In this document: one piece after another, positions 1,562 to 48,500 of the stretch
Layout of the letters: every line of letters begins with the position of its first letter
Position numbering within the stretch: the stretch's first letter is position 1
DNA from: Psammoneis japonica
Lineage: Eukaryota
Direction: 5' to 3'
Assembly (NCBI GenBank): GCA_008632985.1
Contig: QPGO01000029.1
Span: 322,874 to 386,873 of the forward strand
Length of the DNA: 64,000 nt
Program-made: the position numbers and the translations under genes
Notes under the pieces: generated by a model
The model's database searches: none
Seen by the model: only the letters and a program-made list of their open reading frames with translations
Told to the model about the DNA's origin: nothing

Positions 1562-2061
1562 GGATGGATCTACGTGCTGCGTTCAGTTTTTTGGGAGCTC
1601 GTAATTTTTATAAAAATAACCCGGATGCATCGTAGTAAATGCGCGCGCGTTCGCAAAAAAAAGTTTCAGCGATCGGTCGAACTTTGTCCGTTCGCCAGAC
1701 ACCCTAGAATGCTTGAACGACAGGTGTGACTATGCGCGACTTTTACCTTAACGACTGTAGATATGTCAATGGCCAGTCAAATGCCACTTGTCGGCATTTC
1801 CCGGAAAGTTGCCGCCAACCTCCCACAAGAAGCCCGACCCCAGCGAAAATTGGCAGTTTTTTCGACCTGACAACAGGGCACAGGTCAACAAGTGGCATTT
1901 GAAGTGCTGAGTGTGCAGCTCTTGTGGCCGTCCAACAGCACCTGTGAGGGTTTGACGAACGCACAAGTGTTCGGGGGTGTTCCGAGGCAGGTCAAAATGA
2001 CACGGTGAAGTGCGGGAAATGCGAGCCATTTTAAATTAGACTGCAGCACGTAGATCCATCC
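1562..2061. mobile_element. Non-autonomous TIR element (MITE) copy 1, Kolobok-like termini
   Basis: TIR GGATGGATCTACGTGCTGC ... GCAGCACGTAGATCCATCC; flanked by TTAA (1558-1561) and TCAA (2062-2065); GG..CC termini with a TTAA TSD fit Kolobok rather than piggyBac (CC..GG). Confidence 0.8.
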
Positions 2062-2086
2062 TCAAAATCCCACCATGACAGCTTGA

Positions 2087-2584
2087 GGATGGATCAGCGT
2101 GCTGCGGTCTGTTTTTTGGGAGCTCGCAATTTTCACAAAAATGACCCGGGTGCATCGCAGCAAATGCGCGCGCGTTCGCAAAAAAAATTTCAGCGATGGG
2201 TCGAACTTTGTCCATTCATCAGACACCCTAGAATCCTCAAACGACAGGTGTGGCCATGCGCGACTTTTACCTCAACCACTGCAGACATGTCAACAGCCAG
2301 TCAAATGCCACTCATCGGCATTTCCCGGAGAGCCACCGCCAATCTCCCCTGAGAAGCCCGACTTTGGTGAAAATCAGCGGTTTTTTCGACCTGACAACAG
2401 GGCACAGGTCGACAAGCGGCATTTGAAGCGCCAAATGTGCAGCTCTCATAGCCGTCCAACAGCCCCCATGAGGGTTTGACGAACGCACAAGCATTCGGGG
2501 GTGTTCCGAGGCATGTCAAAATGATGCAGTGAAGTGTGGGAAATGCGAGCTGTTTCAAATTAGACAAAGCATGCAGATCCATCC
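2087..2584. mobile_element. MITE copy 2 (same family, same orientation)
   Basis: Colinear with 1562-2061 over its whole length; TIRs GGATGGATC...GATCCATCC; flanks TTGA (2083-2086) and TCAA (2585-2588). Confidence 0.8.
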
Positions 2585-3249
2585 TCAAGGCGGGCCATCG
2601 GCTCATTTTTTTCGCACGTCTTTTCCGGGTTTTTATGCGTTTTTGATGGGTCGTGACAGAAAATGACACGACAAAAGCACGAGCGACAATGACGATGTTC
2701 GTGACGAGCGGCAAGCTGCAAAGTGTCGCCTCACGAGGGGTGCTCATTGGCTTTGTTGTCGTCACACAGTTCAGATTGATTTGTGTGCTTTCGTCCCTCG
2801 CGCCACTGGGCCAATTTTGAGAGATGGCGCAATTGCCGTCATCGTCGTGCTTTGATCGCGGTGCCTGATGTTCTCGTTTTTGTGGGCGATCGAACAACTC
2901 TTGCATTTGAAGCTGACAATTGCAAATGAGCGCATTCAAACACATTGCCAATTTTGGGACAAACGTGGAAAAAATGGGTCGGCAGTCCCCCTCAAGGGGG
3001 GTCATCCCCGCGTTTGTCCCAAAATTGCCGTTGCATTTGAACAAGGTTTTTTGCAGTGTTTGTTTTTGAGTGCAAGAATTGTTCACAGTCACACCCGATC
3101 GCACACGAAAACGAGAACCATCAGCACCGCGACCGAAGCACGACGATGATGACAGTCATTGACGTTTCTCAAAAATGCAGTTTGCCGTCCACCAACTTTG
3201 TTGTTGCTGTCATCACTGTTTTGTTTTTGAGCTTTTTTGAAGACATGCT

Positions 3250-4900
3250 TTGACACTTTACAGCCAGCCATGCTGTGGAGGTGTGTTTGATGTGCAGCTC
3301 CTTTTCGCTGCAATGCTCTTTGTCAGCTTGCATTGAGAGTCTTCTTGGTTGGTTGCCAAGTCATTGTTGCGCATTTGTGCTGGTCTCTCAGCTCTGGCTG
3401 CTCAAGCCTCCTTTGAGGCAGGCTGTTGGGAAACAGTGTCATGGCATCTTGGCCTCCAGCTTGCAGCTGCTGATGGTGCCACCCATTGTTGGCCACATGG
3501 AGCAATGCATGTTCACACTGCGCTTGCCAACAACTTTTGTGGAGCATCTTTCCATCTTCACCTGCATCCAATGTCAAATGTTCAAAACACTGGCAAGTTG
3601 CAAAGGATTCTGTTGTGCGTGTTTCTGTGAAGACAACTCTTCCAGTTGTTTGAGCTCCCAGGGTGTGTGGCCTGAGCGCACCTCAGATTGTTTTCAAGAG
3701 AATGAGTTTTGGCTTGGTGATTTAACACCAGCTCTGGATGGTGCTCATTTTGTGATTGTTTTTGTGTCTTCTGTGGGAATCTGTTTGTTTGCATTGTCAA
3801 AGTCCCTGACAGTGTTGCCATGCACTGAGTTGCATGTCACATTGAATTTTGCCCATCCTGTTTCACAGGGCTTGTTTTCAATGATGCAATTTGTCTCTTC
3901 CCAAACAGCACCATGCTTCAAGTTTGCTGTTTTCCATTCCTTCCTGAACAGCACCATGCTTCAGGTTTGCTGTTTTCCAGTCCAGCAGCAAAACATTTGA
4001 TTTCATGTTCAGGGTCATCCTGGAGTGTGTGAGAGTGACAAACTCTGCTTGCTCAATTTTTTGTCTGTTTTTCAGGGAGAGTTAAAATTGGGGGAACACC
4101 ATGAAACACAATTGAGCAACACATTTTCTAGCACCAATTTGCTGATGATCACTGCTGATGTTGACAAGATCAAAATGCTGCAAGTTGTGTCACTGTGCAC
4201 TGCACTGGCACACTGCATCTGACTCTGATGAATGTTGTTGCTTTGTTTTGTTGCAAGGAGCGCCATCAAGGGCTTGCTTGCCATGCTTGAAATCTGACTG
4301 AGTCATCTTTGGCAAATGATTGTGAGTCATGCTGCTCAAAAGAAATCTTGGATCCTTGTGAGCCATTTCTTGCATGACACACAGAGGTGAGCACATTGCA
4401 TCAAGTTTGCAATTGCGCTGTCTGTCAAAAAGGAATTGGCTCAATGAGAAGTTCATTTTGAAAGAAGAGTCTTTTTGTCATTGTCAGTCATGCAACAAGG
4501 AACACATTGGATTGAGGGGTGCACCACTGTCGTGAGACACAGCAGATTGATGGCTGAGTTGTTGTTTGGTGTGTGGTGCCCCACACAACAATGAGACATG
4601 TGCGGCAGACACACTGGAAAAAGCAATGAGCAACTGAGCTGAAGCTCTTTTAAATGAACAAATCAACTCTGAACAAGATGCTGGGCTGCAAAACAAAGCA
4701 CGAATTGATGGCCATTGGAAAAATTGGCTGTCAACCTCAAACAATGACAAGGCGGCACCAGATTTGTGAGACTGACAATGAAGATCCAGCATCAGAACTT
4801 TGTCTGGAATCCAGTTGCAGGGGCCACCTTGGCTGAACTTTGAAAACTTGTGACACCTGTGAAGAGTGCTGTCACAGGTGTGAAAATTTTTGATTTTTGT
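3250..4900 (-). pseudogene. Degenerate coding-like sequence of unknown family inside repeat island 1
   Basis: Chain of broken minus-strand ORFs (e.g. FRKEWKTANLKHGAVWEETNCIIENKPCETGWAKFNV), no Tyr, strongly TpA- and CpG-depleted. Confidence 0.3.
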
Positions 4901-5302
4901 CAATGGATCTTCTCATTGCAAGAGTGAAAAGAACATGTTGCACACAGGGGTCTCCAAAGGTTTTTCTTCCATGTTAAATTGTCTGAGCCAACTGGCAATG
5001 GCAAACTGTGGCATTGTCATCAATGTTGTCAGCAATCAGTTGACCAGTGCTTGGCACCACCAAAAGTCATCGGCCACTCCTGCATGTGGACATTCGAGAG
5101 CCAGGTGTGGGAGCGATGCTGCTCCAATCAAAATGCTCTGTGACCCACATGTTCAAGTCAGACAACTTTGTGATTTTAAGCACAAGCTTGCAGCTGGCCA
5201 ATGGGGGGGGGGGGGCTGGGCAGAAGCACGTGAAAGCCCCAGAAGTTCAGCATGTTTTTCATGCGCGTGCAATCTTTGACACACAACAAACATGAAATGA
5301 AT

Positions 5303-5547
5303 GAGAGTTGGCAGACAGACCACCTCCGTCACAGACTTGTGGCTTGTTGTTTTCACCGCGGTGAAGCACGGTGAAATTCAGGAAAAATCATGCAAAACAC
5401 AAGCCATTCGGCCGAATTCGAGCAATGAGAGTTGGCAGACGGACCATCTCCATCACAGACTCATGGCTTGTTGTTTTCACCATGGTGAAGCACAGTGAAA
5501 TTCAGGAAAAATCATGCAAAACACGAGCTGTTCGGCCAAATTCGAGC
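5303..5547 (+). repeat. Tandem duplication of a ~125 bp unit
   Basis: GAGAGTTGGCAGAC...TTCAGGAAAAATCATGCAAAACAC...AATTCGAGC at ~5303 and ~5428. Confidence 0.85.
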
Positions 5548-5567
5548 TGAAAAAGCAGCAACCTCGG

Positions 5568-5929
5568 CATTGTTGATTGATGGGCTTGTGTTGTTCAAGT
5601 GCACAAAGCAGACATCAGGACGGCCCTCCTTGTTTGTTTTGGACCAAGCACTTTGATTGTTTGCGAAATGGGTGAATGCGGAATGGACTGGCACTGGTCT
5701 CATGCACTGGGCATCCAGTCTGATGCGTCAAGATGTTTTGTCTGAGATGCCAGGATTGCCACCCAAGATCTTCAGCCTGACTTTGAATCTTTTCATTGTT
5801 GACTGACGGGCTTGTGTTGTTCAAGTGCACAAAGCAGACATCAGGACGGCCCTCCTTGTTTGTTTCGGACCAAGCACTTTGATTGTTTGCGAAATGGGTG
5901 AGTGTGGAATGGACTGGCACTGGTCTCAT
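5568..5929 (+). repeat. Direct repeat of ~135 bp (5568-5703 and 5794-5929)
   Basis: CATTGTTGA..GGGCTTGTGTTGTTCAAGTGCACAAAGCAGACATCAGGACGGCCCTCC...GGCACTGGTCTCAT present twice; two ORFs share MRPVPVHS...FVHLNNTSPS. Confidence 0.85.
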
Positions 5930-6487
5930 TCATGATCTCTTGCATTGATTTCATCCAAACTCCAAAAGGTCCCATCCGACAGTGCCACTTGAATGTTTGG
6001 TGCCTTTGACCACATGCGAGTCGATTCGGCCTTGTTCAATCCCAGAGTTTGCTCCCACGTGTCGTGGTCTGGTGCAAACAGGATGCTCTTGCATGTGCCT
6101 TGAATGACAATGATGTGCATGTTGCCGATTCTCTCATGGTCATGATGCAGAGCACCAGAACACTCTGCAGACACATGTTGACCTGGAGCAAGTCTGGGCA
6201 CTTTTGTGTTGTCATCTTGGTTTGGGAATGGGGTGAGGTGAGAAAGGTTTCAACTGTTTGGCCCAGCGCCAAGCCAACACATCCAAAGCAGCCACATGCA
6301 CTTGTCGCAAGATGTGCACCATGACAATTCACAATGTCCTTTCAAAACTGACCCAATCCATGCACGAGCCCCAAATGCAAGTGGGTGGTGCAGAGAGACT
6401 GAACATTTTAAGGCAGCTGCTGGAGATCTGGGTTGGACTCCAATGCACGTGCTTCATGCCGTTGAGCCCAAGAGTGGCCTCTGGAGC

Positions 6488-6958
6488 CGCAAAATCACAA
6501 AGGGCGCAAAATGACCAAGGGCTTGAGATGGCCAAGGGTGCAAAATCACAAAGGGTGCAAAATGGCCAAGGGCGCAAAATCACAAAGGGCGCAAAAACAC
6601 AAAGGGCGCAAAATGGCGGCAAAGGGTGCAAAATCACAAATGGCGCAAAATGGCCAAGGGCACAAAATGACCAAGGGCGCAAGACAGCCAAGGGCTCAAA
6701 ATCACAAATGGCACAAAATGAAGGCAAAGTGTGCAAAATCACAAAGGGTGCAAAATTGCAAAGGGCGCAAAATGACCAAGGGCACAAGACAGCCAAGGGC
6801 TCAAAATCACAAAGGGCACAAAATGGCGGCAAAGGGTGCAAAATCACAAAGGGCACAAAGTGGCCAAGGGCACAAAAACACAAAGGGTGCAAAATGGTGG
6901 CAAAGGGTGCAAAATCACAAATGGCACAAAATGGCCAAGGGTGCAAAATCACAAATGA
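6488..6958 (+). repeat. Complex modular minisatellite, block 1
   Basis: 17-20 bp units AAGGGYRCAAAAT + CACA / GGCC / GACC / GGCGGCA. Confidence 0.95.
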
Positions 6959-7250
6959 GGCTGGCCACACGAAAAGGTGCTGATGGAGCTCGAAACAGCT
7001 CGAACGGTCAATTTTCAGGTGTGGACACCAACAGAAAGCTCTTGTCGCACATGTGTTGTTTGTCAATTCCCATTTCCTGATGAATGGAGGCTGATTGAAC
7101 ATTTCAACAGTCAAAATGGTTTGTTGCAAAACACATTTGCACATGAAACATGGTTGTTTGTCATGCGACTGCGCTCTGCGCGCTTTTTCTCAACAAATGT
7201 TTTGGGAGCTCGAGAGCACCCGTTGGCACCTTTTCATGTGGCCAGTCTTA

Positions 7251-9925
7251 AATGGCACAAAATGACCAAGGGCGCAAGACAGCCAAGGGCTCAAAATCAC
7301 AAATGGTGCAAAATGGCAGCAAAGTGTGCAAAATCACAAAGGGTGCAAAATGACAAAGGGCGCAAAATGGCCAAGGGCACAAAATCACAAAGGGCGCAAA
7401 TGGCCAAGGGGCAAAAATCACAAAGGGCTCAAAACCACAAAGGGTGCAAAATCACAAAGGGTGCAAAATTGCAAAGGGCGCAAAATCACAAAGGGCGCAA
7501 AATGACCAAGGGCACAAAATGACAAAGGGCACAAAATGGCCAAGGGCGCAAAATCACAAAGAGTGCAAAATGGCGGCAAAGGGTGCAAAATCACAAAGAG
7601 CACAAAATCACAAAGGGCGCAAAATGGCGGCAAAGGGTGCAAAGTCACAAAGGGCACAAAACAAACAAGGGCACAAGATGGCCAAGGGCGCAAAATCACA
7701 AAGGGCGCAAAATGGCAGCAGAGGGTGCACAAGACAGCCAAGGGCTCAAAATCACAAAGGGCGCAAAGTGGTGGCAAAGGGTGCAAAATCACAAAGGGCG
7801 CAAAATGGCCAAGGGCGCAAAATCACAAAAAGGGCGCAAAAACACAAAGGGCGCAAAATGGCGGCAAAGGGTGCAAAATCACAAAGGGCGCAAAATCACA
7901 AAGGGTGCAAAATGGTGGCAAAGGGCTCAAAATCACAAAGGGCGCAAAATGACCAAGGGCTTGAGATGGCCAAGGGCGCAAAATCACAAAGGGTGCAAAA
8001 TGGCGGCAAAGGGTGCAAAATCACAAAGGGCACAAAATGACCAAGAGCTTGAGGTGGCAAAGGGCGCAAAAACACAAAGGGTGCAGGGTGGTGGCAAAGG
8101 GTGCGAAATCACAAAGGGTGCAAAGTTGCAAAGGGCGCAAAATCACAAAGGGCACAAAATCGCCAAGGGCACAAAATGGCCAAGGGCACAAAATGGCCAA
8201 GGGTGCAAAATCACAAAGGGCACAAAATGACCAAGGGCACAAAATGGCCAAGGGTGCAAAATCACAAAGGGTGCAAAATGGTGACAAAGGGTGCAAAATC
8301 ACAAAGGGCGCAAAAAGACCAAGGGCACAAAATGACCAAGGGCACAAAATGGCCAAGGGCGCAAAATCACAAAGGGTGCAAAATGGCGGCAAAGGGCAGA
8401 AAATCACAAAGGGTGCAAAATGGCAGCAAAGGGCGCAAAATCACAAAGAGTGCAAAAACACCAAGGGCACAAAATGGCCAAGGGCGCAAAATGGCCAAGG
8501 GCACAAAATCACAAAGGGCAAAAAATGACCAAGGGCACAAAATGGCCAAGGGCACAAAATCACAAAGGGTGCAAAATGGTGGCAAAGGGTGCAAAATCAC
8601 AAAGGGTGCAAAGTGGCAGCAAAGGGTGCAAAATTGCAAAGGGCGCAAAATGGCCAAGGGCGCAAAATCAAAAAAAGGCGCAAAATCAAAAAGGGTGCAA
8701 AATCACCAAGGGCTTTGGATGGCCAAGGGAGCAAAATGACAAAGGGTGCAAAATGTCGGCAAAGGGTGCAAAATGACAAAGGGCACAAAATGGCCAAGAG
8801 CTTGAGGTGGCAAAGGGCGCAAAAACACAAAGGGTGCAGGGTGGTGGCAAAGGGTGCGAAATCACAAAGGGTGCAAAATCACAAAGGGCACAAAATGGCC
8901 AAGGGCGGAAAATCACAAAGGGTGCAAAATGACCAAGGGCACAAAATGGCCAAGGGCACAAAATCACAAAGGGCGCAAAATCACAAAGGGCGCAAAATGG
9001 CAGCAAAGGGTGCAAAATTTCAAAGGGCGCAAAATGGCCAAGGGCACAAAATCAAAAAAAGGCACAAAATGACCAAGGGCTTGAGACTGCCAAGGGCGCA
9101 AAGTCACAAAGGGTGCAAAATGGCGGCAAAGGGTGCAAAACCACAAAGGGCACAAAATCACAAAGGGTGCAAAATGACCAAGGGCTTGAGATGGCCAAGG
9201 GAGCAAAATCACAAAGGGTGCAAAATGTCGGCAAAGGGTGCAAAATTACAAAGGGTGCAAAATGGCGGCAAAGGGTGCAAAATCACAAAGGGCGCAAAAT
9301 CACAAAGGGTGCAAAATGACCAAGAGCTTGAGATGGCAAAGGGCGCAAAATCACAAAGGGTGCAAAATGGCGGCAAAGGGTGCAAAATCACAAATGGTGC
9401 AAAATCACAAAGGGCGCAAAATCACAAAGGGTGCAAAATGACCAAGGGCTGCACAAAATGGCCAAGGGTGCAAAATCACAAAGGGTGCAAAATGGCGGCA
9501 AAGGGTGCAAAATCACAAAGGGTGCAAAATGGCTGCAATGGGCGCAAAATCACAAAGGGAGCAAAATGGCGGCAAAGGGTGCAAAATGGCCAAGGGCGCA
9601 AATCACAAAGGGTGCAAAATGGCGGCAAAGGGTGCAAAATCACAAAGGGCGCAAAATCACAAAGAGTGCAAAATGGCGGCAAAGGGCGCAAAATCACAAA
9701 GGGCACAAAATGGCCAAGGGCACAAAATGACCAAGGGCTTGAGATGGCCAAGGGTGCAAAATCACAAAGGGTGCAAAATGGCAGCAAAGGGTGCAAAATC
9801 ACAAAGGGCGCAAAATGACCAAGGGCGCAAAATCACAAAGGGCTTGAGATGGCCAAGGGCACAAAATCACAAAGGGTGCAAAATGGCCAAGGGTGCAAAA
9901 TCACAAAGGGCGCAAAATGACCAAG
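7251..9925 (+). repeat. Complex modular minisatellite, block 2 (~2.7 kb)
   Basis: Same 17-20 bp units in shuffled order; the source of the many repetitive ORFs in the track. Confidence 0.95.
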
Positions 9926-10099
9926 GAGTTGCTGTTTCAGCAGGTGCATGACATTCACAGCTCCTGAAATTGACAGTCACAAGCTTTCCAGGGATCTCTT
10001 CCGGTGCCTCACTTGCATCCAAGCACGCGTTGACATCATTCCGCGACAAGCTCCGGTGCTGTGAAGTCAGCATTTGCAGGTCCATCTTGCATTGTCTTG

Positions 10100-12520
10100 G
10101 CAAGTTGCTGGGCTGGCCATGATCCCATCACAACAAATGTGCACCGATGTGTCACACTCAATTGCGCTGACTTGTCCATGACGTCTTGCACCCAACCAGT
10201 GCATTGTGATTTAATCTGTTGCGCAGCAGACTCGTGCCGGCTTCGTGTTGTGGATGGAAAAGAGTGCTTCCTTCCATTCCAACCAGCGGTGTAGGAGCTT
10301 GGGGTGGCTTGAGCTTCTTGGGAGAAGGTCGTCCTTCTCTGTGCTCATGCTGGTCCTCTGGGTCCCATTTCAAGGTCTCAATTGGTGAGTCACCTTGGAT
10401 CTTGTGGTGCTGAATCATCACCTTGTAGTCATCTGACATCCACTTGTCTCTTGGCTTTTGCTTGATTGCCTGTGCCCTCTCCCAAAGTGTGTTTTGGTCA
10501 TTTGTCCTGTTGTTGTCCTTAATTGCTTCCTGAGCATTGTTGTGTTTGACACAGAATGCTTCCTGCTCAAGGACATCCCCGTTCAAATGAACTCACCCAG
10601 CAGCGTAAAGTTTCCCACTTGTCAGTTTCTTTGTCCTGTCATGCATTGCAAGTGACCTCTCACCTGCCTTCCTCTTCTGCTGCCATTTGGCCTTGGCCCC
10701 TTCCGTGTTGGCACGAGCGAGAACAACCACCATCTCCTCTGCTGCTGAGCTGTCCAACACGTTCAAGTCTTGCAGCATCTCCCATTTTTCTCAGGAGCAA
10801 GGGCTGGAGACAAGGGTTGATGTTGGCTCTTGTTGTTGGGTCTTGTCCTTCGTTTTGAGGATTTCTGGGTGGCTGAGGCACTTGCAGTTGGGTGGATTCC
10901 AGCCGCATTTGGCAGTGGCATCTTTGCTCCCATCTTCATTGGCAAAGCTTCCATTCCAGCCTGCGTTTGTGGTGGGTGTGATGTCCAACTTGCGGCCATC
11001 AATGGGCAGGTTTGTGGCTCTCTTCAAAGCAACTTGATTGGCTGCATGCACCCAACAGCCAATCTTGAATTGGCCATTCTGCTGGCTGCTGTCCCCCAGT
11101 TGCCAAATGTGAGCACCACACGGAAGGCCAAGACACATGCACCACTTGGTGAGTTCATCATTGATGCACCTGAGAAGCTCCAGATCAAACCTTGTGCCAT
11201 GGCCATCGATCATTGCATGAGGAACGGGGCCTCCCTCAACTCGTGGAAGGATCTCCAACTCGTCAAGGTGTCGAAGAATGTCTGCGAGCATCTCTCCCAT
11301 TGTGCCTGCATGTGGAGACACGGTTGCACAGCAAGGCACACGCTTTTCTCAAAAGATGCACTCAGGTCCACCTGGCATGAGCTTTCCTTTCCCAGCATTT
11401 GCACGCAGCCAATCACTGGCCAAACCATTGTGATCAGAAACATCATCGCAGTCGGCAAACAAATCACATCCTTGACTGTGCAACAGAGGAAGATCTCTCT
11501 TTTCACCCTTCACAATGACAACGCAAAGAACTGGTTGCCCATTTGCTGCAGTGAAGCCCATGGTGGTCCATGGAATGTTGGTTGTGGCGGCGGTCTTGGT
11601 GGCCTTCGATCCCTTTTCCGTCATGACTTTCTCGGTGGAGCGATTGCTGCCAACACGCTGATTTGTGTCATTCCCCACCTCATCTGCCATGAGCAAGCAC
11701 TCAGGATGCTTCATCTTGCATTTCGCAGCATGCCCGTGTGCTTTTTTCTCTGTTGACACTTCATCACCCTGCTTGTCAAGGAATGCGGCCTCCTCAACTT
11801 TGTCCAAAATTCTTGCTTCTTCTTGAAGGCACTCGCAAATTGAGTCGTGCATGAATTTGATGTTGTCGTACATCGCCCACTCCTGCCGATCCACGGAGAA
11901 GCCTTTGGGGCATTTTGCATTGACTCTGTCCCCACGCCAATTCATGAAGCCTTTGCAGTGCTTGATGCCGAGTTCAGCATGTGGATTCTGTGGGTCGGAA
12001 GGCTCGAATCCACGGCGAACCTTTTTCCATTCAACGACTCGCTTCTCGACTGCAGTGCCTTCAATTGGAGAGTTTGCCATTTCCAAAAATTTTTTTGCTT
12101 TGCTGGAGCATTCAGTTGTGCCATTGAATGACAATGTCCAAGAAGCATGCTCTCGACGTCTTGCACCGGTGATGTGCGATGCCCAGTCGTGAGCCGTTGT
12201 GGTGCCTGCTGGGTTGCTTGCATGCAGCTCGATTTAAGATGGATCTCTCCGGCATTTGGGCTGACTCGTCAATCCCATGCTTTACTTTTGCTTCTCCAAT
12301 TGTCTCCTTCAATGTGCCTTTGGGCAATCTCTCTTCTTCGCCATCCTTGAGGAGCTCGCGACATCGAATGAGTTCCTCAGTGGCCCAAACCTTCGCCTCT
12401 TCCAAGTCACTGTCCCTTTGCGTCATTGCTTCTGCTGTGGCTCCTTTGGGTCTTCCTCCTTTGCTTTGGTTTTCAAGTGGTGGAGGGTTGTTGTCATTTT
12501 TGGGTCCTTCCTTTGCTCGG
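10100..12520 (-). pseudogene. Pogo/Tc1-mariner-like DDE transposase, frameshifted and hypermutated
   Basis: Fragments HPECLLMADEVG, WTTMGFTAANGQPVLCVVI, PGGPEC, AMIDGHGTR, LGLPCGAHIWQLGDSSQQNGQFK resemble the DDE_1 catalytic core; candidate terminus near 13195-13245 (two TAAGGACTCARTTC repeats, then TTTTTTACTGG-TA); partner TIR not found. Confidence 0.8.
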
Positions 12521-13491
12521 GTGTCTTCGTCAGAGACAAGTGCGGCTTGCTCTCTTTTCCCACAATTTTTGATCCATGGTTGAATTCGTCACACGTTCCA
12601 AGTTGTGCCCAGAGAGCAATCCCTGCACAAACCCACGTGGAAGGCAATTGGATCCATTCTTGGATTGTTCTTCCAATGCAAGCGACACAGCCTTTTCCAG
12701 GTTTTCTTTGTGGATTTGGTCGGTGATGTTGACAAAGTGACAAGAAGGGCCGACCGACGTTTGTTGCTGTTGATGCGAGGAGAAGGCACTGGCGACACAA
12801 CACTGATGGTTGAAATAGATGAGGAAAGTGGGAGACTTGGACGTCGCAGTCTCTGACTTCTCCTTGTGGGAAGCAACGACGAAACGAGCGCCATGGTGAC
12901 AGTGTCGATTTGTGGTTGGAACGTTGGCGTCAAATTCAAAAGTTTCAAAATCAACGAAGCAGTGCGAGGAGTGATGGCATATGATGTACGTGTCTTAACT
13001 TTGTTGAATCTCGTTTTCGCGTTCAAAAACACAAACGACCATGTTCGACGGCAACGGGCAGCCGGAGAAAACTGAAACACCCAAATCCAAACACATGGTC
13101 AGAAGCAGCAGCAATCGAAGATTGTCTCAGCAACTAAAAAACTTTGATTACTTGGTTTTTTCATCATTTTATGGATCGATTCAACATGTGGGTCGGATAA
13201 GGACTCAGTTCAGTCATAAGGACTCAATTCGGTTTTTTACTGGTAAATCTCCTGCCAACTTCAACTTTTCCCGCCTCGATTTGAATTTCGATTGGCGCAG
13301 ATGGAGGTAAACAGCCACTCTAATGTAACAAACTAAAACTAGAACATGTGAAAATGCTTAGTAGCTCTCTCTAGCTCTAGCTAGAGGGTGCTTTTACTCT
13401 ACGAGATTAGTCTGCTGACGCTTCGACAAACGTGAAAGGAAGGAGGTGAAGCCCGCAACAAATGCTTCGAAAGTGTGCTAATACTTACTCT

Positions 13492-27335: not shown

Positions 27336-27539
27336 ACCACAAGGACGGGAACACTTTCACTTTGCATTGTATTGTCGGGCCTATATCAAATTCAATAAGA
27401 AACATATGAATACAGCATAATCAATTTAGTGAAACCTAAAATTAGCCTCTCGCTATGATTGGACAGCATTAGTTGATGCGCGAGCAAGTGGCGGAAAAAT
27501 TGGGCTAGCATCGCGGATGCTGCTCTGGTGTTTATGTTC

Positions 27540-31407: not shown

Positions 31408-31756
31408 GCTCTGTAACATCTTTCAATCATGGGGATTAGCCCTTCGGTGTAAACATGGTGCATGTCCTTCTAGAAGCTGTCATCCGGCATTTCCTAGCCA
31501 CAGAAGATGGCTCGCAGCATCTGAGCGATAGTCCTACAATCGTACCACGTCGCATTCGACAACGTCGTAGCGCAATGTCAAGTGGATTGAACATTTTGAA
31601 CCATTGTCCAAAACCCATAGACCAAACTCGCAGAAGAATCAATTGAAAGGGCCAAGGAACCGCTCTGGATTGGACAAGGATGATTGTTTGCATTCCCAGC
31701 AGGTGGATTGCAATTTGAAAGCTCAACCACCCTTGTTTTCAGTGTGGCATTGTGTG

Positions 31757-34700: not shown

Positions 34701-37700
34701 CATCATCAATGAAACAATCTGCATCAATCTCATTCATCACTTCTTCAATGATGGCTTGAGCAACATCTGTCACCGGCTTCAAACCCATTGTGAGTCGACA
34801 ATGTCGAAACTTGCCACAAGGAGCAACAACAGCACACAACTCCTTGGACTCTTCATCAAGCTCCAAAGCACAACAGAACATGGACAAATCCAACTTGGGG
34901 GAAATGCTTGCATCCTTTTCTCTTCTTGACAATGTCTTGAATTCTTGGCAAAGGACACATTGGCCCTTTTAGTGCCTTGTTGAGCATGCAAAAATTGGAC
35001 ACCCATCGCACTCGCTGATCCTTTTTGGGAATGATGAACAAAGGAGATGCCCAACAGGTGGGGCCACAAGGCCTTGATGCTTCCATCTGAACAAGATGCT
35101 GAAGCTCTCTCTTGAAAATCTCTTCATGAACCTTCGGGACTGAGTGCTGTCGAGCATGAACCGGAATTGCACTGGGATCAATTTCCAAGTGGACCAATTC
35201 ATGTGGATGCCAACCCAATTTTCCATCAAACACCTTCAGGAACCTGGCCAGTGCTTGCTGCAATTCCAGTTGCTGCTCTCTTGACAGACATGTTTGCCTC
35301 TTAGCTGCTTCTTCTAGAGATGCTGCTGACTCACATTTGGCACCCAGAATTTGCGTGGTGAGTGAATGAAACTTGATCTCGTTGATTTCTTCTTCTTCAA
35401 CTTCTGGACCTGCAAGAGCAAAGTGAGCATTTTCTGCATTGTCCCAAAAGGTAAGTTCCTTCATGGGTGTGGACTTGCCCAACCACTTGACTGTCCTTGA
35501 TGAAAAGTTCACATCAATTCCCATCTTGGTCAAAAAATCCGATCCAAGAATCACATCGTAACGGCACGGCATTTGAAATGTGAGAGCCCTTTGAAAATCA
35601 ATGCTTCTTGATCTGTTGAATTCAGGTGGCACAATCATCTCCAAACCAACTGCTCCATTGCTCTTCATTGGTCCTGCAGCTGTGTTGCATGCTGCTGTCT
35701 TCTTGAGCAGGCTTGGAGCAGCTCCACATGCCAAACATTGCTCGTGAACAAGAGCAGTTGCACTGCCTGAATCAAACAACATTCTTGATGAACGAGAACA
35801 GAGTGAGCTCCATTCACTTGTTTGCATGCAAGGACTGATGCAGGTGCCATGTCAGCATTCATGCTTTTTACATTGGGCACCGGCATGCCACCACAATTCA
35901 ATCCCATTGGCTCTTCTTGATTTTTCTCATTCTCCATGTTGCTTTCATGTGACAAACATGTGTCATGTGAAGGTTCATGTTCAATTGGTGCATTTGTGTC
36001 AATGGCAATGACATTGTCAACTTCAAAGCTGACACCAGGACTGGAGCAGCACTCCAAGCTGGATCACAATCCAGGTCCTCTTAGACATGGACCTCATCTG
36101 ACATCCACTCCTCCTGACGTCTTGTCAGGACCTCCTGGCAGACCACAGCCTGCCATGTCAAAGTGGCGCACATCTGCACCCCACTCTTGTGACTGCGCAT
36201 CAGTCAGAGAAGCTTGTCAAGCTGGGTGAGCATTTGGTTCTTCTGAACTGCTCTGCACCTGACATTGGTTTGCACAAAAATTCTGAGGCAAATTCTGCTG
36301 ACCGCATCCTCGGCCCACACTGTTCTGGTTGTAACCACGGCCATGTCCGCCTTGGCCACATCCAAAACTGTTGTTGGGGGTGTGTCCACCATCGCCACAT
36401 CCATGTCTCCAGCACAGTTGGCATTCTGAGGGCCACAAAATCAACCTCCATGGTTTCCTCGGCCTGGACATTGGTTGCAACCTCGCCCACAACCTGCATC
36501 TCAGCCTGCACTTGGCAAACCTTGGCCACCCCTCTGAAAATGAGGATTTGGATTGCAACTGGGACTCTTGAGATTCTCCCTGCAATTTCACCACAAAAGA
36601 GGTGCTGCAGAGTCCTTGTGCAATCAACAACAGGAGTCGGGACCAAACTTCTTCTTGTTCCCGGCAGAATCCACATCTCCAGCTCTGCACTTCTTGGGCT
36701 CCTCTTCAGACTTGCCAGAACTTTTCTGATCAGCAAATCCTTTCTCATTGGACACATGCTGAGTGACATCTTCTAAGGAATCAGTGCTGACATCCTTTCC
36801 AGCATGCACACAACTCTGCTTCCACATCATCGGCATTCCCATGAATGTGTTGTTCTTGATTTGTTGCTCATTGAGCAAAGGCTCAGTTCCTGGCAGCTTG
36901 TTGGCACAATGTGACATTTGAATCATCCTGTCAGCATGCTCATGAGGAGAATCACCAAAGGGTTTAGAGAAGTTTTTTTCAAAAATTCAAACATCGTGTC
37001 ACGTGCTTGATGATCGCAGTGTCACTGATGGAAGCACGCAATTTCCGCATCAAACCTGGCCATCATCCGATCTGCTCCTGTGGTGCCTGAAACCAAATTG
37101 CTCCATGCGTCTTGAGTGTTGTCATCCAGTGCTTCTTCACAATGGGTGAATTTTTCAGGCCCTTCATCACAATCCAAATGCTCGGCACAGTTTTCAAATC
37201 ACTCTGCAGTGCAGAGCAAGCACTCAATGCCACACTTGCCGGTGAACTGAGGGCACATCTTCTGTTTCTTAGCACCATCGTCACAGTTCTGCACAAGTTT
37301 CACTTTGTCCAAATCTCCGTGCTTGGTGAAGGTTGATTTGTGCACAAAGCACGGTGCTCTCAATGAGGCTCTCACCAAATGCGACATTGCGTTTGAGGCA
37401 AAGAATGCACAGCAAAGAAAAAAAAGGAAAGAACAAGACACAGTGTGATCACAGTGAATGGTCTTGACAAGCTGTCTACAAACACTTTCTAAAAATCATG
37501 GGAAAAGCTGCGATTGACTGTGCAGCCACAGTGCTCGGGTTTCTGTCACAGAATTTCTTCGAGGTGTCAACAATCCCGGTCATTCGAATCTCCCAAATCT
37601 TTCAGCTGATGACACAATCATGATGCAGAAGTTTGCTTCATCTGTCTCCGCTCCACAGCCACCCATGCTGCAGCACAGCAGCCTGTGCACCCAAACACTC

Positions 37701-38368
37701 CACCCTGTGGAAAACATGCACAGCTTGCAAGCTTGGGCTCTGTTGTGCAACAAAAAGAGGGCAAAGCTGCTTGCCCCAGCTTCTGCTTTGTGCCAGGCCA
37801 CATGCACCCCACCCCTGCCAGACCTTGTGGGAGCTCTCTGGCTGGCCAGCTGACAGCCCAGGTGAGCTGTGTGCCAATGGCGGCAAAGGCTCTGGCAAAG
37901 AAGGAGCTTCTTGTGACAGCATTGTGAGCAGAGGGGTGTGCAAAAAATGGCGACTCTGGTCTTCTCATGGCCAAAAGCTGGGCACTGCTGCATGACAGTC
38001 AAGTTGCTGTTTTTTGGCCATTGGCGGCTTTGCGCTTTGGCCTCTGTTTTGTCTCATTCAAGCAAAATCAGATGGCGGCCATCCAAGTGTTTGCTCCTCC
38101 TGTTTGTCTGGCTGCCAGATTGGCTTTTGTAAAAGCTCTCTCTTTTGCACCATCATCTTGTGAGCCATGGAGATTTTTCAGAGCTTTTGGTGGCTTCCAA
38201 TCTAGTTTCCAAGGGGTGTGCTGAGGCAGATGAGATCTGGGCATTTGAGATCGCTTTTGACTTTTCAACATGCAGTCAAGGGAATTGTGGAGCGCCGTCT
38301 CTCATTCGCCCAATGACGCTCGCTGTGCACAAGAACAGGCACAGCACACACGACTCACTGATTTTGCC
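31757..38368. repeat. ~1.3 kb dispersed repeat, copy A, split by the Gypsy insertion (31757-32332 + 37641-38368)
   Basis: Both halves align colinearly with the uninterrupted copy at 42464-43685. Confidence 0.8.
32333..37640 (-). mobile_element. Full-length, inactivated Ty3/Gypsy LTR retrotransposon
   Basis: LTRs 32333-32516 and 37455-37640 (TGAA...TTCA); 5-bp TSD TCTGT on both sides; polypurine tract GGAAGGGAAGAG next to the 3' LTR; order gag-like, protease (LFDSGS), RT (WASPLFIIPKKD, FIDDV), RNase H ([11 protein letters not shown]), integrase (VAIDSIGPW, IHDKGSEF, NPQANAIC, GPF). Confidence 0.95.
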
Positions 38369-38510
38369 TTTGAAACCAAACACCAAAAACCAACAATCAA
38401 AAACAGCCGCAGCCTCATCAACACATACTCGAATACTCTCGTGGAGACACGCTAGGAATACTCCTCCCGGAGGACCTTATGACCTCATTTATTTTCGTTG
38501 AAACAAGACC

Positions 38511-42105: not shown

Positions 42106-42463
42106 CATGTGGCTCTTCATTTCCAATTGTGTACAATTGTGCGCCAAACTGCTTTTGCTCTATGATGTATCATCCCACGAGCTCAATTGCTGGTTCGAAA
42201 TTTTGGACTGCTTCACTGCCGTGTACGCACTGCCACAGTGGAGATCTAACACGAGATAACAAATCGTGGCGGTTTCATTCTACCACATCTTTGTTGGTTG
42301 TTGGGCACCATCAGTTTTTCTCTCTGATTCTTTGCATGGCTCCGACGTGTCATCTACATGGGCGCACCACAGCTGGCCACTTGTCTCTTGTTCACAAAAC
42401 TTTGGCGCCCTTCCTCTGCATGTGAGTGCCACAAGGCATTGCATCTGTTCTCTTCACTGTCCA

Positions 42464-43685
42464 CACACATGGCGAAGTGACGTAAACAGCCAAAGGAGTG
42501 CACCCTGCATTGCCTCATTTTGCAGTTGCTAAAGCCACTCCTGAAGCACCTTTGCTGAGCTTTGTCTGGCTCCATGGGGTGACAAACTGTCTCCAGTTCA
42601 AGAACAGCTGCTCTTGAGCTTGTCCAGCATGCAGTCATTGTGCAAAATGGCAGCAACAAATGGAGAGAAGCAGTTGGCTGCATTTGTGTGCGCTGTTTTG
42701 TTCTCCACTTTTTTCCCCTCAAGTTGAGCCAATGCAAAGCAAACGCCCACTTGCTGCAAAGCACAAAAAAGAGCAGAGGTGGCTCCTGAGCTCTTGCCAA
42801 AGCTCTGGCAGACAAAGCAGCATGCACCCATGCCAGAGGCGGCAATGAAGTGCCTTTCTTGTGTTGCAGCTGTTGCAAAAACAAAGTGACTTCAAGCCTG
42901 CGCTGAGCTTGCATCTCTCCAATTGCAGGGAGTTTTGGAAAAATGCAGAGAAAACAGAGCTGGCCAAAGATGAGTGTGAGCACTCGTGCCCTGCAAGCAC
43001 AGTGTGCAGAGGTTGCTCTGTGCTGCAACCATCTCCACATCCACCCATGCTGCAGCACAGCAGCCTGTGCACCCAAGCACTTCACCTCTGGGGAAAATGT
43101 GCGCAGTTTGCAAGCTTTGGCTGCGGCACGCAACAAAAAGCTTGCGAAGCTGCTCGCCACAGCTTCTGCTGCTTTGCCAGGCCACATGCACCCCACCCCC
43201 ACTCAGACCTTGTGGGAGCTCTCTGGCTGGCTGGCTGGCAGCCCAGGTGAGCTGTGTGTGCCAGCAGCAGCAGCAAAAAAGCTCTGATGAAGAAGGAGCT
43301 CATTCTTGTGACAGCTTTGCTGTGAGCAGAGGGGCACACAAAAAAAAAAGCTCTGGTCTCATCATGGCAAAAAGCTGGGTGCTGCTGCATGACAAACAAG
43401 TTGCTGTTTTTGGCCATTGGTGGCTTTGTGCTTTGGCCTCTGTTTTGTCTCTCATTTGAGCAAGTTGGACGACATCCAAATGTTTGCTCCTCCTCCTGTT
43501 TGTCTGGCTGCCTGCTTGGCTCCTGTGCACAAAAACTCTCTTTTGCACCATCATCTTGTGAGCCACGGAGATCTTTGAGAGACTTTGGGAGTCTCTGCTT
43601 CCCCTCTAGTTAGCCAGGGTGTGCTGGCTGAGCGAGCGAGATCGCAAGAACAGGCACAGCACACAAGACTAACACTGATTTCGCC
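42464..43685. repeat. ~1.2 kb dispersed repeat, copy B (uninterrupted), TpA-depleted island 4
   Basis: Shares e.g. AAAGCCACTCCTGAAGCACCTTTGCTGAGCTTTGTCTG and CAAGAACAGGCACAGCACAC with copy A, same orientation. Confidence 0.85.
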
Positions 43686-45175: not shown

Positions 45176-45240
45176 CCGATTTGAGGACTCGAGTGAAAAC
45201 ATGCAACGCAGAAGTAGATTTCGTCCTCGCGATAAATTAT

Positions 45241-47028
45241 TCATATGCCTGTATCATTGCACTTTTCTTTCTTCCCAGAAAGCTTGTAACCTAGCCTTCT
45301 CTGATGTTTTAGTTGTTGCGTTGTCGTACGTTCCTCTCGCTCGTACCAAGGTGAAGGTGCAGAAGAGTTGGGAGACGGAAGGAAAAGTCGGTATAGATCC
45401 ATGTTGTTTGCCACAAACGATGGCTCCAGACCATGAAGTACGCACCAGCGACGCATTGATACATCAACCTGCTGCTCCATGGTATAGCTTGGAACAGATA
45501 AGAGACTTTCAAGCACGGATTCTGACACGTTGACTTCCCGATGAGACGCAGCACTTCGAATCATATCGTGATTGATTACAGAGGCTGGATACGCAGAAGG
45601 CAAGCCAACCACACCTTCTGTTAGGGTAAATTCTCCGGGGGGCGGCATAGTAGAATCTCGAAGAACTTTGTGCAAAGCCTCTGCAGGAGGCAATGTCCAT
45701 TCGTGAAAGGGGTCTTCGTCGTGGGATCGTCGTAGCTGTTCAGATGATATGATATCTTCATTTCCCTCAGATCCTTCGTGGTGAATTCGATTCTTTGCTT
45801 CCAATTTAAGGCATCGAGTAACATGTGACCTTGCTAGAGGGAGTAACGAGGCTGTCAAAGATTCTTCGACTACCATACCTAAAGCAACCAGAGCAGATTG
45901 ATCAAACGATCGAAACAATGAGTGGTCGTGATTCGCGGCGACGCCTTCAACATTGGATTCTGTTGGACATGGCGCTTCCCCGCGAGACTCAGGAACAGAC
46001 AGTTCCACCTCTTTTGTCCGTCTGAAGTTGTCAAAAAGGCGATACGTTTCGTCGTCACTTCCGTAAGTCCACTTGCCCTCTTGCCACGGAAGCCGTTTGG
46101 GCTTACTAGTTTTGGGTGGACTCTCGTCATCCGACACATCACTGTTGGCCAAGAAACGATGCTTCACCCAAGTGCAGTTGCTTTGATCTTGTAGGCGAGG
46201 TATTCGAATGGATGACCAGACCTGCTCTTCTGCACGTTGCGAGATGAACTTGAGGTGCGATGGCGGCAGCGGCGAGTCGGATAAACAAAGAAGTGGATTT
46301 GAATCATTAATATTTGTGGTTTCGGCAACCGGCATTGATTCTGCCTGCTCAGAAGGGTCGTTCGTTGGATTACTATTGCTTTCTCCACAGTGTGTGCAGT
46401 GAGTGGCCCACCCAACAAGGGAGCTGATCTCCTTTACTGGCATCGCCTGAAAGACACAATCCCTACCCGCCCAGGAAGAATCAGCCAATTCGTTCCAATC
46501 TACATAGTCTCTCTTCCTATCGCTGAGTTTTTCTTCCTCATCCACACTATTTTCTTCAGAAGAAGATCCTAGAGCTTCGTCTTTCTCATCTGATTGCTCG
46601 TCCAAAAGAGAGGCGATCCGTTGTTGTTTCGTTCGATGCTCCTTTATTGCAATGCGTCCTCTCTTCTCGAGTTGTCGGCTGTGGGAAGTTCGCGATTGCG
46701 ACCATTTTCTTTTCAAACCTTTCCCTGGTAGTCGACTACGGGAACCTGACGACATAGGTATAGGACCAGCATTTATGCGTCCTTGAGGATGAGAAGCAGC
46801 AGACTTCGAATCTCTGTCATCTTTGTTCTGAACAGCTGAAGAAGATGATAATTCGGCTCGACTTGCCTCGTCGACATCATCACCGGAGGAGGAAGAACTT
46901 GAAGAGCTGCTCGATTGACTAGATAGCTCATTTTTAAAGGAGACGTTCGTTGGTTCGTCCGTATTAAGAAGATCAACGCTCTCGTTGTAGCTGCTATCAT
47001 CGTCGCTACGATTCATCTTGCTCATCAT
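45241..47028 (-). CDS. Hypothetical protein, Ser/acidic-rich N-terminus
   Basis: ~595-aa intact ORF with normal Tyr/TpA usage; no recognised domain. Confidence 0.7.
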   Translation of the reverse strand: MMSKMNRSDDDSSYNESVDLLNTDEPTNVSFKNELSSQSSSSSSSSSSGDDVDEASRAELSSSSAVQNKDDRDSKSAASHPQGRINAGPIPMSSGSRSRLPGKGLKRKWSQSRTSHSRQLEKRGRIAIKEHRTKQQRIASLLDEQSDEKDEALGSSSEENSVDEEEKLSDRKRDYVDWNELADSSWAGRDCVFQAMPVKEISSLVGWATHCTHCGESNSNPTNDPSEQAESMPVAETTNINDSNPLLCLSDSPLPPSHLKFISQRAEEQVWSSIRIPRLQDQSNCTWVKHRFLANSDVSDDESPPKTSKPKRLPWQEGKWTYGSDDETYRLFDNFRRTKEVELSVPESRGEAPCPTESNVEGVAANHDHSLFRSFDQSALVALGMVVEESLTASLLPLARSHVTRCLKLEAKNRIHHEGSEGNEDIISSEQLRRSHDEDPFHEWTLPPAEALHKVLRDSTMPPPGEFTLTEGVVGLPSAYPASVINHDMIRSAASHREVNVSESVLESLLSVPSYTMEQQVDVSMRRWCVLHGLEPSFVANNMDLYRLFLPSPNSSAPSPWYEREERTTTQQLKHQRRLGYKLSGKKEKCNDTGI

Positions 47029-47099
47029 TCCATCAATTTGGGCGTTGTGAACAGCAAACAGCAAACTGGAAACGCCCTTTCAAGAATGGCCTTATGTGC

Positions 47100-48500
47100 T
47101 GTCACGCTCCAAGATTTGGCCGGCCACGCCAGCCCGCCCGGCGCCGTCCGGCAAGCACGGCACGCACGTGCACCTTCTCCTCGCTCAAGGTGGCTCAGGA
47201 GCTCTATGATGCAACCATTCACTCTGTCATGTCCTGCTGTTTGGCACAGCCGGTTGGCCTCCCAAAGCAGAACTCTTACCATCATGGTGCCACACTGGCT
47301 GGCAGCAGAGGAGAGTTGCCACTGTCTTTGAGCTGCAGGTTCCTCTTGAGTGACAAGGAGGAAGGAACTGAGAAAACTGGCTCTCTGGCTGCTGGCTGTT
47401 GATTGTGAGCATGAGATTGGGAAAGTGAGGGGATGTGAGAAGGGGTCTCTTGGTTGACACTGTCTCTCTGGAGAGTGTGCCTCTGGCTCCAGAGCAGACA
47501 ACTGCCAGAGGGTCTGAGCAGAGAGGTCAACGTGCAACCTTCCGCATGCCATGGTCCGTGGCTGACATGAAAGACTCTCATGGTGGCATTTTTCAACCCG
47601 CGCTGCAACACCCTGTTGTCAAGTGATGGGGGTTGTCTCCTGTTGCATTTCTTCTCAAATCAACCTGTCAATCCAACCACTCTCTTTGTTTGCCATGAGG
47701 GTAGAAACAACAACGGCGGCAGAACACAGCACATGTGCAGCGCTGCTTGCCTTGGAACTTTCAACACTTCTTCTTGATGATGGCACTGCCAGGGGCATTT
47801 GTGGCATTGATTTTGTTGATGGCTTCTTGAAATGATTCACCATGTCAACTTGGCAGTTGCTTCTTTTGTTTGGCTTTCACGAGGGTGATGGAGATGCACA
47901 AACTTTTGCTGCTGCAAAACAACTTGGCTGGACATCTGTGTGTGTTGCCATCCATGCTGCTGCATCTTCATCCATCACCATCCTTCATCACATGGACCCA
48001 AGACAAGGGGATGATCATTTGAAAATTGCCCATGGCCCAGCAATGGCTTTTGCTCTTCTTTGGGCAGAGTGGCAAATGTGCGGGTTGAGCCCTCCACAAA
48101 AACAAGTTTCTCAGCGTTGTGCCAGGCAGGTTTGAGAAGAGCCACATTGTCCACAGAATGATGCTCAAGTCTTTCTCAAGGCAACATTGACATGAGACAG
48201 ATTTCTTTGCCACCAAGACACTGGCCAAAGCACAAAAAGGACAAATGTTGTCATTTGTGTTGGCCATGCTGTTGGAGTCTCATCATGGCAGGCAGATGAT
48301 GGACACCCCAAGATCGCCGTCATGTGGGGTTCTTCTTGGCAGGTGGTCAGCAAGAACATGGGGCAAGTTTTGGCAACCCAAGGTGGTGACTTCCAATGTT
48401 AAAATGTTTTGTGTGTTCAGCTGCTCTGCTTCACACAATCAATCTTGTGACTGGAGTTGGGAAGTCGTGCTGTGATTTGTGAGAGAAAATACACATTTCA
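47100..48500. repeat. TpA/CpG-depleted repeat island 5 (decayed element)
   Basis: Very few TA dinucleotides, almost Tyr-free overlapping ORFs on both strands. Confidence 0.6.

Follow-up and report, generated by a model that had tools for sequence, protein, structure and literature searches.

Does the genome of a diatom record a mutation process that erases the dinucleotide TpA from its repeats? The question is raised by a 64-kb window, the whole stretch of DNA analysed here, from Psammoneis japonica (assembly GCA_008632985.1, contig QPGO01000029.1, positions 322,874 to 386,873 of the forward strand). An earlier note, made from the letters alone, described in it five islands nearly free of TA and rich in CA and TG, and proposed an undescribed mutator acting at TpA in repeat DNA. 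Our analysis confirms the islands and shows that TA changed to CA or TG, with the adenines of the two strands hit independently and preferentially before a pyrimidine. We consider it probable that the silent repeats of this window were hypermutated from TpA to TpG and CpA after their arrival, and the window constitutes a second, distant lineage with TpA hypermutation, which here has run nearly to completion.

The first such lineage is the chlorarachniophyte Bigelowiella natans. The proposal that the process had not been described did not hold, since a preprint has measured the same signature there (bioRxiv 10.64898/2026.01.13.699255); full-text literature searches returned this preprint as the sole description of such a process. 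According to it, 231 of the 302 nuclear single-nucleotide mutations in 15 B. natans mutation-accumulation lines lay in giant-virus and virophage regions, 230 of these 231 were A->G or T->C, and the GC-biased ones were all on TpA (10.64898/2026.01.13.699255). The reported rate is ~6e-7 per site per generation, with only some lines affected, and the hypermutated target is single-copy. The same source lists 124 TpA-poor, CpA+TpG-rich clusters and an enrichment of reverse transcriptase and DDE domains among TpA-poor coding sequences, and its authors propose adenine deamination with an ADAT2-like candidate enzyme (10.64898/2026.01.13.699255).

Five islands nearly devoid of TpA

In 1-kb sliding windows, TpA amounts to 0.00-0.14 of expectation in the five islands (Table 1) and CpA+TpG to 1.6-1.95. 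Pooled dinucleotide counts over 22,175 bp of island DNA, as delimited in the earlier note, give 72 TA (observed/expected 0.05), compared with 1,619 (0.57) in the 41.5 kb outside; as a share of all dinucleotide steps, TpA makes up 0.3% in the islands and 3.9% outside, which leaves 9% of the outside level. CA stands at 1.72 of expectation in the islands and 1.15 outside, and TG at 1.70 and 1.14; AA is enriched in the islands (1.41), and G+C content is nearly equal in the two compartments (0.486 and 0.475). The longest run without TA measures 1,998 bp in the islands and 203 bp outside, with the exception of a 442-bp run that spans a stretch of N at 59167-59529. At a TA density of 3.9%, chance alone would essentially never leave 1 kb without a TA. 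Genes lying between the islands show TA at ~0.4-0.9 of expectation and, at 50-bp resolution, the transition takes place over 50-100 bp at every edge examined. The islands are thus real, and the depletion is stronger than first described. The N stretch is an assembly gap of 363 N, and the low G+C content over 58.5-60 kb is an effect of it.

The assembled bases were compared with Logan contigs of a public sequencing run, X1, in which 87% of the words sampled from a test stretch of 9.9 kb are present; no RNA data set was listed as containing that stretch. These contigs (word depth ~62) agree with the assembly, although X1 may be the assembly's own data: single-copy island DNA shows 0-3 differences per piece, for example two over 28203-31853 and none over either 37665-42560 or 42605-43070. 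Ongoing activity was not seen in this comparison, as no difference between the assembly and X1 in single-copy island DNA lies at TpA.

TpA was changed to CpA and TpG, probably in place

The direction of change was read from the decayed LTR (long terminal repeat) retrotransposon of island 3. A phmmer search of its RNase H open reading frame (ORF) against 1.84 billion representatives returned 4,777 matches, the best 150 of which were taken further. Seventy of these 150, each of at least 250 aa and at least 2.5% Tyr, served as outgroups in tblastn alignments (high-scoring segment pairs of at least 38% identity), and 222 columns qualified as conserved, with at least four homologues aligned and at least 70% of them agreeing. 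None of the 14 conserved Tyr columns has kept its Tyr in the window: seven have become Cys (TGY), five His (CAY), one Trp (TGG) and one Phe. Other residues are mostly retained, namely Asp at 13 of 14 columns, Lys 11/11, Trp 9/10, Arg 9/10, His 6/6, Gln 6/6, Asn 6/6, Cys 5/5 and Leu 27/34; the weakest besides Tyr are Phe (3/9), Thr (7/13) and Ile (5/9). Replacements of Leu by Pro at CCA (three) and by Ser at TCA (one) are consistent with CTA/TTA->CCA/TCA.

A tandem duplication at the start of island 1 gives the same direction within the window. Between its two copies (85.9% identity) lie 61 transitions and 11 transversions, and the island edge at ~1765 crosses copy 1, the outer 210 bp of which retain TA. 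The outer copy has 17 TA steps; 13 of these read CA (11) or TG (2) in the inner copy and three are TA in both, and the reverse pattern occurs once. CpG is conserved in both copies at 26 sites. Polarised against outgroup proteins and across this edge, the substitutions are A:T->G:C transitions at TpA, with Tyr replaced by His or Cys at 12 of the 14 columns and 13 duplicated sites pointing from TA to CA or TG against one pointing back. The direction TA->CA/TG, for which the earlier note had argued, is borne out.

Could the elements instead have been TA-poor already when they spread, through TA-free master copies or selection against TA, so that the islands inherited their state? All family copies seen in X1 appear TA-poor among the listed variants, and small TA-free elements could still be mobilised in trans. 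The two LTRs tell against inheritance: identical at insertion, they now differ by 21 transitions and five transversions, with 18 of the 21 transitions in pyrimidine-purine (Y-R) steps and five sites discordant between CA and TG, so that the changes arose after insertion. A 1.15-kb repeat present in islands 3 and 4, hereafter repeat R, shows another 19 CA-versus-TG discordances between its two copies. In the tandem duplication, TA outside the edge faces CA or TG inside it; a satellite and repeats of unrelated types are in the same state; and the pol gene is destroyed at its conserved Tyr, so that a master of this kind could not be autonomous. Related elements elsewhere are TA-normal as well: in 79 metagenome loci kept of 439 confirmed relatives, TA observed/expected ranges from 0.41 to 1.00, which indicates that low TA is not native to the element lineage; none of these 79 is a mutated environmental copy. 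The Tyr columns, the LTR pair and the tandem duplication already largely refute an inherited TA deficit, which we regard as very improbable.

The copies of the LTR family in X1 differ from the window element by 117 transitions and 15 transversions, including adjacent TG<->CA double changes. Forty of the 132 variant places were listed, and these yielded 31 events in the element, 15 of them Y-R interconversions; all three listed events on a surviving TA of the window have CA or TG in other copies.

Each strand is hit independently, preferentially before a pyrimidine

The few TA steps left in the islands are far from a random sample. With R for purine and Y for pyrimidine, the context R-TA-Y accounts for 3 of them and for 485 outside, mixed contexts for 31 and 867, and Y-TA-R for 38 and 266 (Fisher p = 1e-13). 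In a model of four parameters, one for each base that can follow the adenine, the adenines of the two strands escape mutation independently of one another. This model fits the ten reverse-complement classes (chi-square 2.67, 6 degrees of freedom); uniform survival is rejected (chi-square 117.4, 9 degrees of freedom). The fitted survival is 0.08 for TAT, 0.16 for TAC, 0.36 for TAG and 0.75 for TAA. The adenine that is hit is therefore preferentially followed by a pyrimidine, in the order TAT > TAC > TAG > TAA, and the strands behave independently. Both strands are affected, as shown by the seven Cys and five His products and by the equal enrichment of CA and TG; TpG and CpA, the two products reported from B. 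natans, are both present. The core of the earlier proposal, an A:T->G:C mutator acting on both strands at TpA in repeat DNA, survives these tests, although the note had overlooked the decay of CpG in the same islands (see below).

A different chemistry could leave the same pattern. A modified base at TpA in silent chromatin, either 5-hydroxymethyluracil made by a TET/JBP-type enzyme oxidising thymine or N6-methylated adenine, might mispair and give T->C or A->G with no deaminase involved. TpA is palindromic, as a site would be if one enzyme marked both of its strands, the gains of CA and TG are symmetric, and 5-hydroxymethyluracil in dinoflagellates is enriched at TpA. Conversely, independent strand hits governed by the 3' base come more naturally from an enzyme reading a single strand, and passive mispairing would not readily yield a rate as high as the ~6e-7 per site per generation of B. 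natans. We consider such a modification unlikely. Considerably less credible still is error-prone repair synthesis in heterochromatin by a polymerase resembling DNA polymerase eta, inserting G opposite T at TA steps. The A:T->G:C bias of polymerase eta at WA motifs (W, A or T) does overlap TA, yet AA is enriched in the islands rather than depleted, the point that the earlier note had rightly raised against this polymerase; neither the near-complete conversion here nor the strict restriction to TpA reported from B. natans resembles a WA motif.

CpG decay is a second, separable process

TpA is not the only dinucleotide missing from the islands. CpG, which the earlier note did not report, stands at 0.37 of expectation in the islands and 0.96 outside. 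If the dinucleotide frequencies found elsewhere in the window were also those of the islands at the start, 758 TA and 771 CG are missing and 1,571 CA+TG are in excess, so that losses and gains nearly balance. The two deficits do not always coincide in space. Between 1770 and 3000 in island 1, TpA is gone and CpG is normal (1.0), and at 11500-12950 of the same island TpA is lost and CpG only mildly low (0.65-0.76). In the retrotransposon pol gene, 7 of 10 conserved Arg are still encoded by CGN codons, compared with 0 of 14 Tyr retained. CpG-type changes do occur there, with Ala->Val at GTG (three), Pro->Leu at CTG (three) and Thr->Met at ATG (one). TpA loss in CpG-normal DNA and the intact CGN codons for Arg show that two processes were at work, the one on TpA much nearer completion, and that TpA loss is separable from the decay of CpG to TpG and CpA, which extends over most of the island DNA but spares parts of it.

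The CpG loss is probably ordinary deamination of 5-methylcytosine, a co-located second process with the expected deficit of CpG and matching gain of TpG and CpA. Deamination of 5-methylcytosine likewise yields TpG and CpA and is found in most of the same islands, but it is unable to remove TpA, is far less complete and is absent at 1770-3000. Several of the related metagenome loci are CpG-poor (0.11-0.34) with normal TA, so that CpG decay alone cannot produce the state of the islands.

Six of these metagenome loci (L022, L035, L060, L074, L018 and L010) have CpG at 0.11-0.31 and TpA at a normal 0.63-0.81; in their hosts, methylation-type decay is acting alone.

Targeting appears to follow chromatin rather than homology

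The island 1 edge at ~1765 lies inside duplicated sequence, ~390 bp upstream of the start of a gene on the reverse strand (2..1378). The interval upstream of this gene, 1379-1765, is on the protected side of the edge and has normal TA despite its partial homology to mutated DNA. In this single case, then, 210 bp of one duplicate escaped. Repeat R is nearly single-copy, with a word depth of 67-78 in X1, or about two copies. The edge within a duplication, the low copy number of repeat R and the single-copy target reported from B. natans together point to a chromatin domain rather than to homology, and we infer that targeting follows chromatin state, that is, silenced or methylated DNA. As in B. 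natans, discrete silent regions are affected and the neighbouring genes are spared.

Comparison with known hypermutation systems

The B. natans system is the closest known parallel. According to the preprint, it too is confined to TpA, with TpG and CpA as products according to strand, and it too acts on discrete foreign or silent regions, leaving a TpA-poor, CpA+TpG-rich footprint. The differences are in host, target and extent. The host here is a stramenopile of the diatom/bolidophyte lineage, whereas B. natans is a rhizarian. In B. natans the target is integrated viral DNA; in the window, an LTR element, a low-copy repeat and a satellite are hit, and neither a giant virus nor a virophage can be recognised. 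TpA outside the islands makes up 3.9% of steps here and 6.0% in B. natans, and conversion is nearly complete here (0.3% left), in contrast with the 3.3% that remain in the active viral region of B. natans. The B. natans work is a direct measurement of rate, and ours describes a historical footprint. The main text of the preprint contains no mention of CpG, satellites or LTRs, and its Results and Discussion hold no analysis of the 3' neighbour.

Repeat-induced point mutation (RIP) of fungi is the analogue in function: it, too, disables repeats by hypermutating them in situ, affects both strands, favours one dinucleotide and ends at sharp limits. Its direction is the opposite: RIP changes C:G to T:A, mainly at CpA, and makes TpA and AT-rich DNA, whereas here TpA is destroyed and G+C content unchanged. 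RIP needs duplicated sequence, and the edge described above runs through a duplicated segment and spares one homologous part. With TpA at 0.05 of expectation and a direction of TA->CA/TG, RIP itself was rejected as the source of the islands.

APOBEC3, ADAR, and TadA and ADAT2 with their DNA-active forms are analogues in chemistry alone. They share with the process proposed here the enzymatic deamination of bases, and the group includes defences against mobile or viral nucleic acid. APOBEC enzymes convert C to U and are strand-polarised, unlike the changes in the window. ADAR and the TadA/ADAT enzymes act on adenine after U or T. ADAR acts on RNA and prefers a 3' G, in contrast to the chromosomal DNA and the 3' pyrimidine preference seen here, which resembles the U-A-C context of the tRNA substrate of TadA. 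TadA and ADAT2 are tRNA enzymes (tRNA A34), and we know of no established natural role for them in genome defence on chromosomal DNA.

Two further sources of the signal can be weighed together: a sequencing or assembly artefact, with modified bases miscalled in one library, and ADAR editing of RNA that was copied back by retrotransposition. Modified bases do cause systematic miscalls on some platforms; against this, the X1 contigs agree with the assembly at a word depth of ~62, and Tyr-free relatives of the element occur in NCBI, ENA and JGI data (see below). Editing fixed by retrotransposition is hard to reconcile with hits on both strands and on repeats that are not retroelements, such as the satellite, with LTRs that diverged after insertion, and with TAG, the favoured triplet of ADAR, being among the better-surviving contexts; on these grounds it was rejected. 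A preference of ADAR for a 5' U, which would suit TpA, is stated in the Discussion of the preprint (bioRxiv 10.64898/2026.01.13.699255). Even taken together, an artefact and ADAR editing seem to us highly improbable.

A proposed explanation

If hypermutation after arrival is the right account, the islands would be silent repeat DNA, comprising the LTR retrotransposon, the low-copy 1.15-kb repeat, the satellite, and tandem and small inverted-repeat elements. Once these repeats had arrived, a local mutation process would have turned almost every TpA into TpG or CpA. Adenine would be deaminated enzymatically to inosine in DNA by a deaminase preferring 5'-T-A-Y-3', and the process may be of the same kind as the de novo mutation measured in B. 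natans. The outcome would be mobile elements permanently disabled, with their Tyr codons and TAA/TAG stops destroyed and their base composition unchanged.

Several points weigh against this account. All the evidence is historical, and no mutation has been seen arising in this organism. No intact, TA-rich copy of the same LTR family is seen among the listed variants, 0 of the 31 listed events showing TA in other family copies where the window has CA or TG, and the outgroups belong to different families at ~40-60% protein identity. The agreement with X1 rules out an error of the assembler, though an artefact of the library would survive it. The context analysis presumes that the NTAN composition from which the islands started was that of the rest of the window. 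TTAA makes up 13 of the 72 surviving TA (18%), compared with 2.7% of outside TA (positions include 4083, 4651, 4975, 5177, 6409, 7249, 10520, 12235, 27687 and 48400), and some of these sites may be target-site duplications of late-arriving, TTAA-inserting elements rather than a refractory context. Runs tests of CA/TG order detected no strand-coordinated clustering at the 250-bp scale: z lay between -2.45 and +1.18 in the islands once the satellite (z +4.7) was set aside, with similar values outside, so that nothing speaks specifically for a deaminase working processively along one strand; a local CA:TG excess of 20:6 in tandem copy 2 is a mere hint of coordination. Targeting by chromatin, finally, is inferred from one edge alone.

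Related footprints in public data and their significance

Tyr-free relatives of the retrotransposon occur in other public records. Among the best 150 of the 4,777 representatives, nine proteins have no Tyr at all (including some as long as 424 and 699 aa) and three more have less than 1%, compared with a family norm of ~3-5%; the 12 are P0127, P0225, P0132, P0253, P0264, P0144, P0193, P0182, P0217, P0249, P0250 and P0254. The scoring covers 12 columns in which Tyr is unanimous among four or more Tyr-normal relatives. In the 12 proteins and the RNase H stretch of the window, Cys occupies 29 of the 70 cells of these columns, His 23 and Tyr two, and the other unanimous residues are retained at 61-100%. 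The 699-aa P0225, which has no Tyr, is a visibly mutated relative of the intact P0156, with, for example, HLDD in place of YLDD. Records of NCBI, ENA and JGI are the source of the 12, some of which could belong to the species of the window. To judge from these protein sequences, the same hypermutation appears to be present in other public records.

To our knowledge, a natural process editing A:T to G:C at a specific motif of chromosomal DNA was first described in one preprint of 2026. A footprint in the diatom lineage shows that the process is not peculiar to one chlorarachniophyte or to integrated viruses, and that ordinary transposons and satellites are also among its targets. New here are the direction polarised by outgroups, the TAY context, the independence of the strands, the distinction between TpA loss and CpG decay, and an edge set without regard to homology. 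The TAY preference, strand independence, separability from CpG loss and the gene-adjacent edge all constrain the search for the enzyme and for its mode of targeting. Domains of this kind are easily mis-annotated, given their normal G+C content, their long false ORFs and the defeat of profile searches.

More tentatively, and with somewhat more doubt than confidence on our part, TpA->TpG/CpA hypermutation might be an old genome defence widespread in the SAR supergroup (stramenopiles, alveolates and Rhizaria) or more broadly among marine algae, exerted by a dedicated TAY-preferring DNA adenine deaminase that acts on single strands and is directed by silent chromatin rather than by homology. If so, it would stand beside RIP and 5-methylcytosine-driven decay and, being composition-neutral, would be invisible to scans based on GC or AT content. 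Two distant lineages and the Tyr-free retroelement proteins would then allow the enzyme to be sought by phylogenetic profiling, and for base editing, too, a natural enzyme that deaminates adenine in DNA would be interesting.

Contents of the islands and their surroundings

The features of the window are collected in Table 1. The earlier note had held that all repeat classes are affected alike; this stands for the satellite, the LTR element and one small inverted-repeat element, whereas the DDE transposon it named has no Pfam match. No DDE transposase was found by Pfam in 81 island ORFs searched at E <= 0.01 or in a further 22 at E <= 5, and the only domains these searches recovered were the RNase H and integrase of the LTR element. 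A simple screen for inverted-repeat elements with TTAA-derived flanks gave one convincing case, at 1777-1902, and its duplicate; each of its two flanks is one TA->CA/TG step away from TTAA.

Table 1. Features of the 64-kb window. Positions count from its first base; island limits are approximate and were refined by the flanking TA steps.
Feature	Position	Strand	Remarks
Island 1	1763..12979		27 TA in 11.2 kb; CpG-poor core
Island 2	27534..29000		Unclassified repeat; 5 TA; CpG 0.21 of expectation; word depth 2-5x single-copy
Island 3	31619..38425		Copy of repeat R split by LTR retrotransposon
Island 4	42455..43643	+	Second, unbroken copy of repeat R; limits from flanking TA 42300/42531-43606
Island 5	47100..48500		Unclassified; TA-poor, CpG-poor; 5 TA; CpG 0.30 of expectation
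Tandem duplication, ~525 bp	1552..2590	+	Copies 1552-2077 and 2078-2590
Small inverted-repeat element, ~118 bp	1777..1902		Terminal inverted repeats; flanks TCAA and TTGA
Satellite	~6400..9900	+	17-bp unit, higher-order periods; TA-free; units vary GCGC/GTGC/GCAC
Repeat R, split copy	31748-32330 + 37640-38400		Broken by LTR retrotransposon
Repeat R, intact copy, ~1.15 kb	42455..43643	+	84-87% identical to split copy
Ty3/gypsy-order LTR retrotransposon, decayed	32333..37656	-	Protease-like region, reverse transcriptase, RNase H, integrase
LTR, one of pair	32333..32530	-	86.9% identical to partner
Integrase	32977-33588	-	Pfam E = 4e-4
RNase H	34099-34371	-	Pfam E = 2e-21
LTR, partner	37455..37656	-	
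Flanking gene	2..1378	-	459-aa open frame running off the window

The retrotransposon is multi-copy in its interior (word depth 335-890, compared with ~62) and heavily decayed, with 50-61 stops and 2-3 Tyr codons per frame; alignment to relatives by tblastn gave the domain order protease-RT-RNase H-integrase (RT, reverse transcriptase). The RT region at 34400-35300 (-) aligns in this way at 31-51% identity, yet it matches no Pfam model, the reverse-transcriptase model included, even at E <= 5. Hypermutation thus blinds profile searches of this region.

Long overlapping ORFs occur in several frames of the islands, for example at 8589-9818 (+), 34859-35851 (-) and 10821-11753 (+); the longest, of up to 409 aa, runs across the satellite. 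The erasure of TAA and TAG stops accounts for these many open frames, which are almost certainly not genes and form a trap for gene callers. An inverted repeat with arms at 2892-2968 and 3008-3084 (77 nt, 70% complementary, 39 nt apart) lies in the TA-free, CpG-normal part of island 1. Rfam gave no match within the window.

The genes between the islands encode a sulfatase, a Kelch-repeat protein, a PRPP synthetase, an IscA-type protein, a UBX/UFD1-like protein, LCM-type and TGS1-type methyltransferases, an aldo-keto reductase, ZW10 and an OSCA/TMEM63-type channel. The PRPP synthetase is 87% identical to that of Nitzschia (a diatom), 86% to Triparma (a bolidophyte), 70% to Ectocarpus and 65% to Phytophthora. 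The aldo-keto reductase has a top match of 58%, its best named matches being diatoms at 49-53%. It is by these two enzymes that the window is placed in the diatom/bolidophyte lineage; the Kelch-repeat ORF has a single distant match of 36%. The PRPP synthetase consists of two open frames 35 bp apart, 25846-26607 and 26643-27335 (+), probably split by a very short intron, and the OSCA/TMEM63-type channel at 55799-57963 is spread over three frames.

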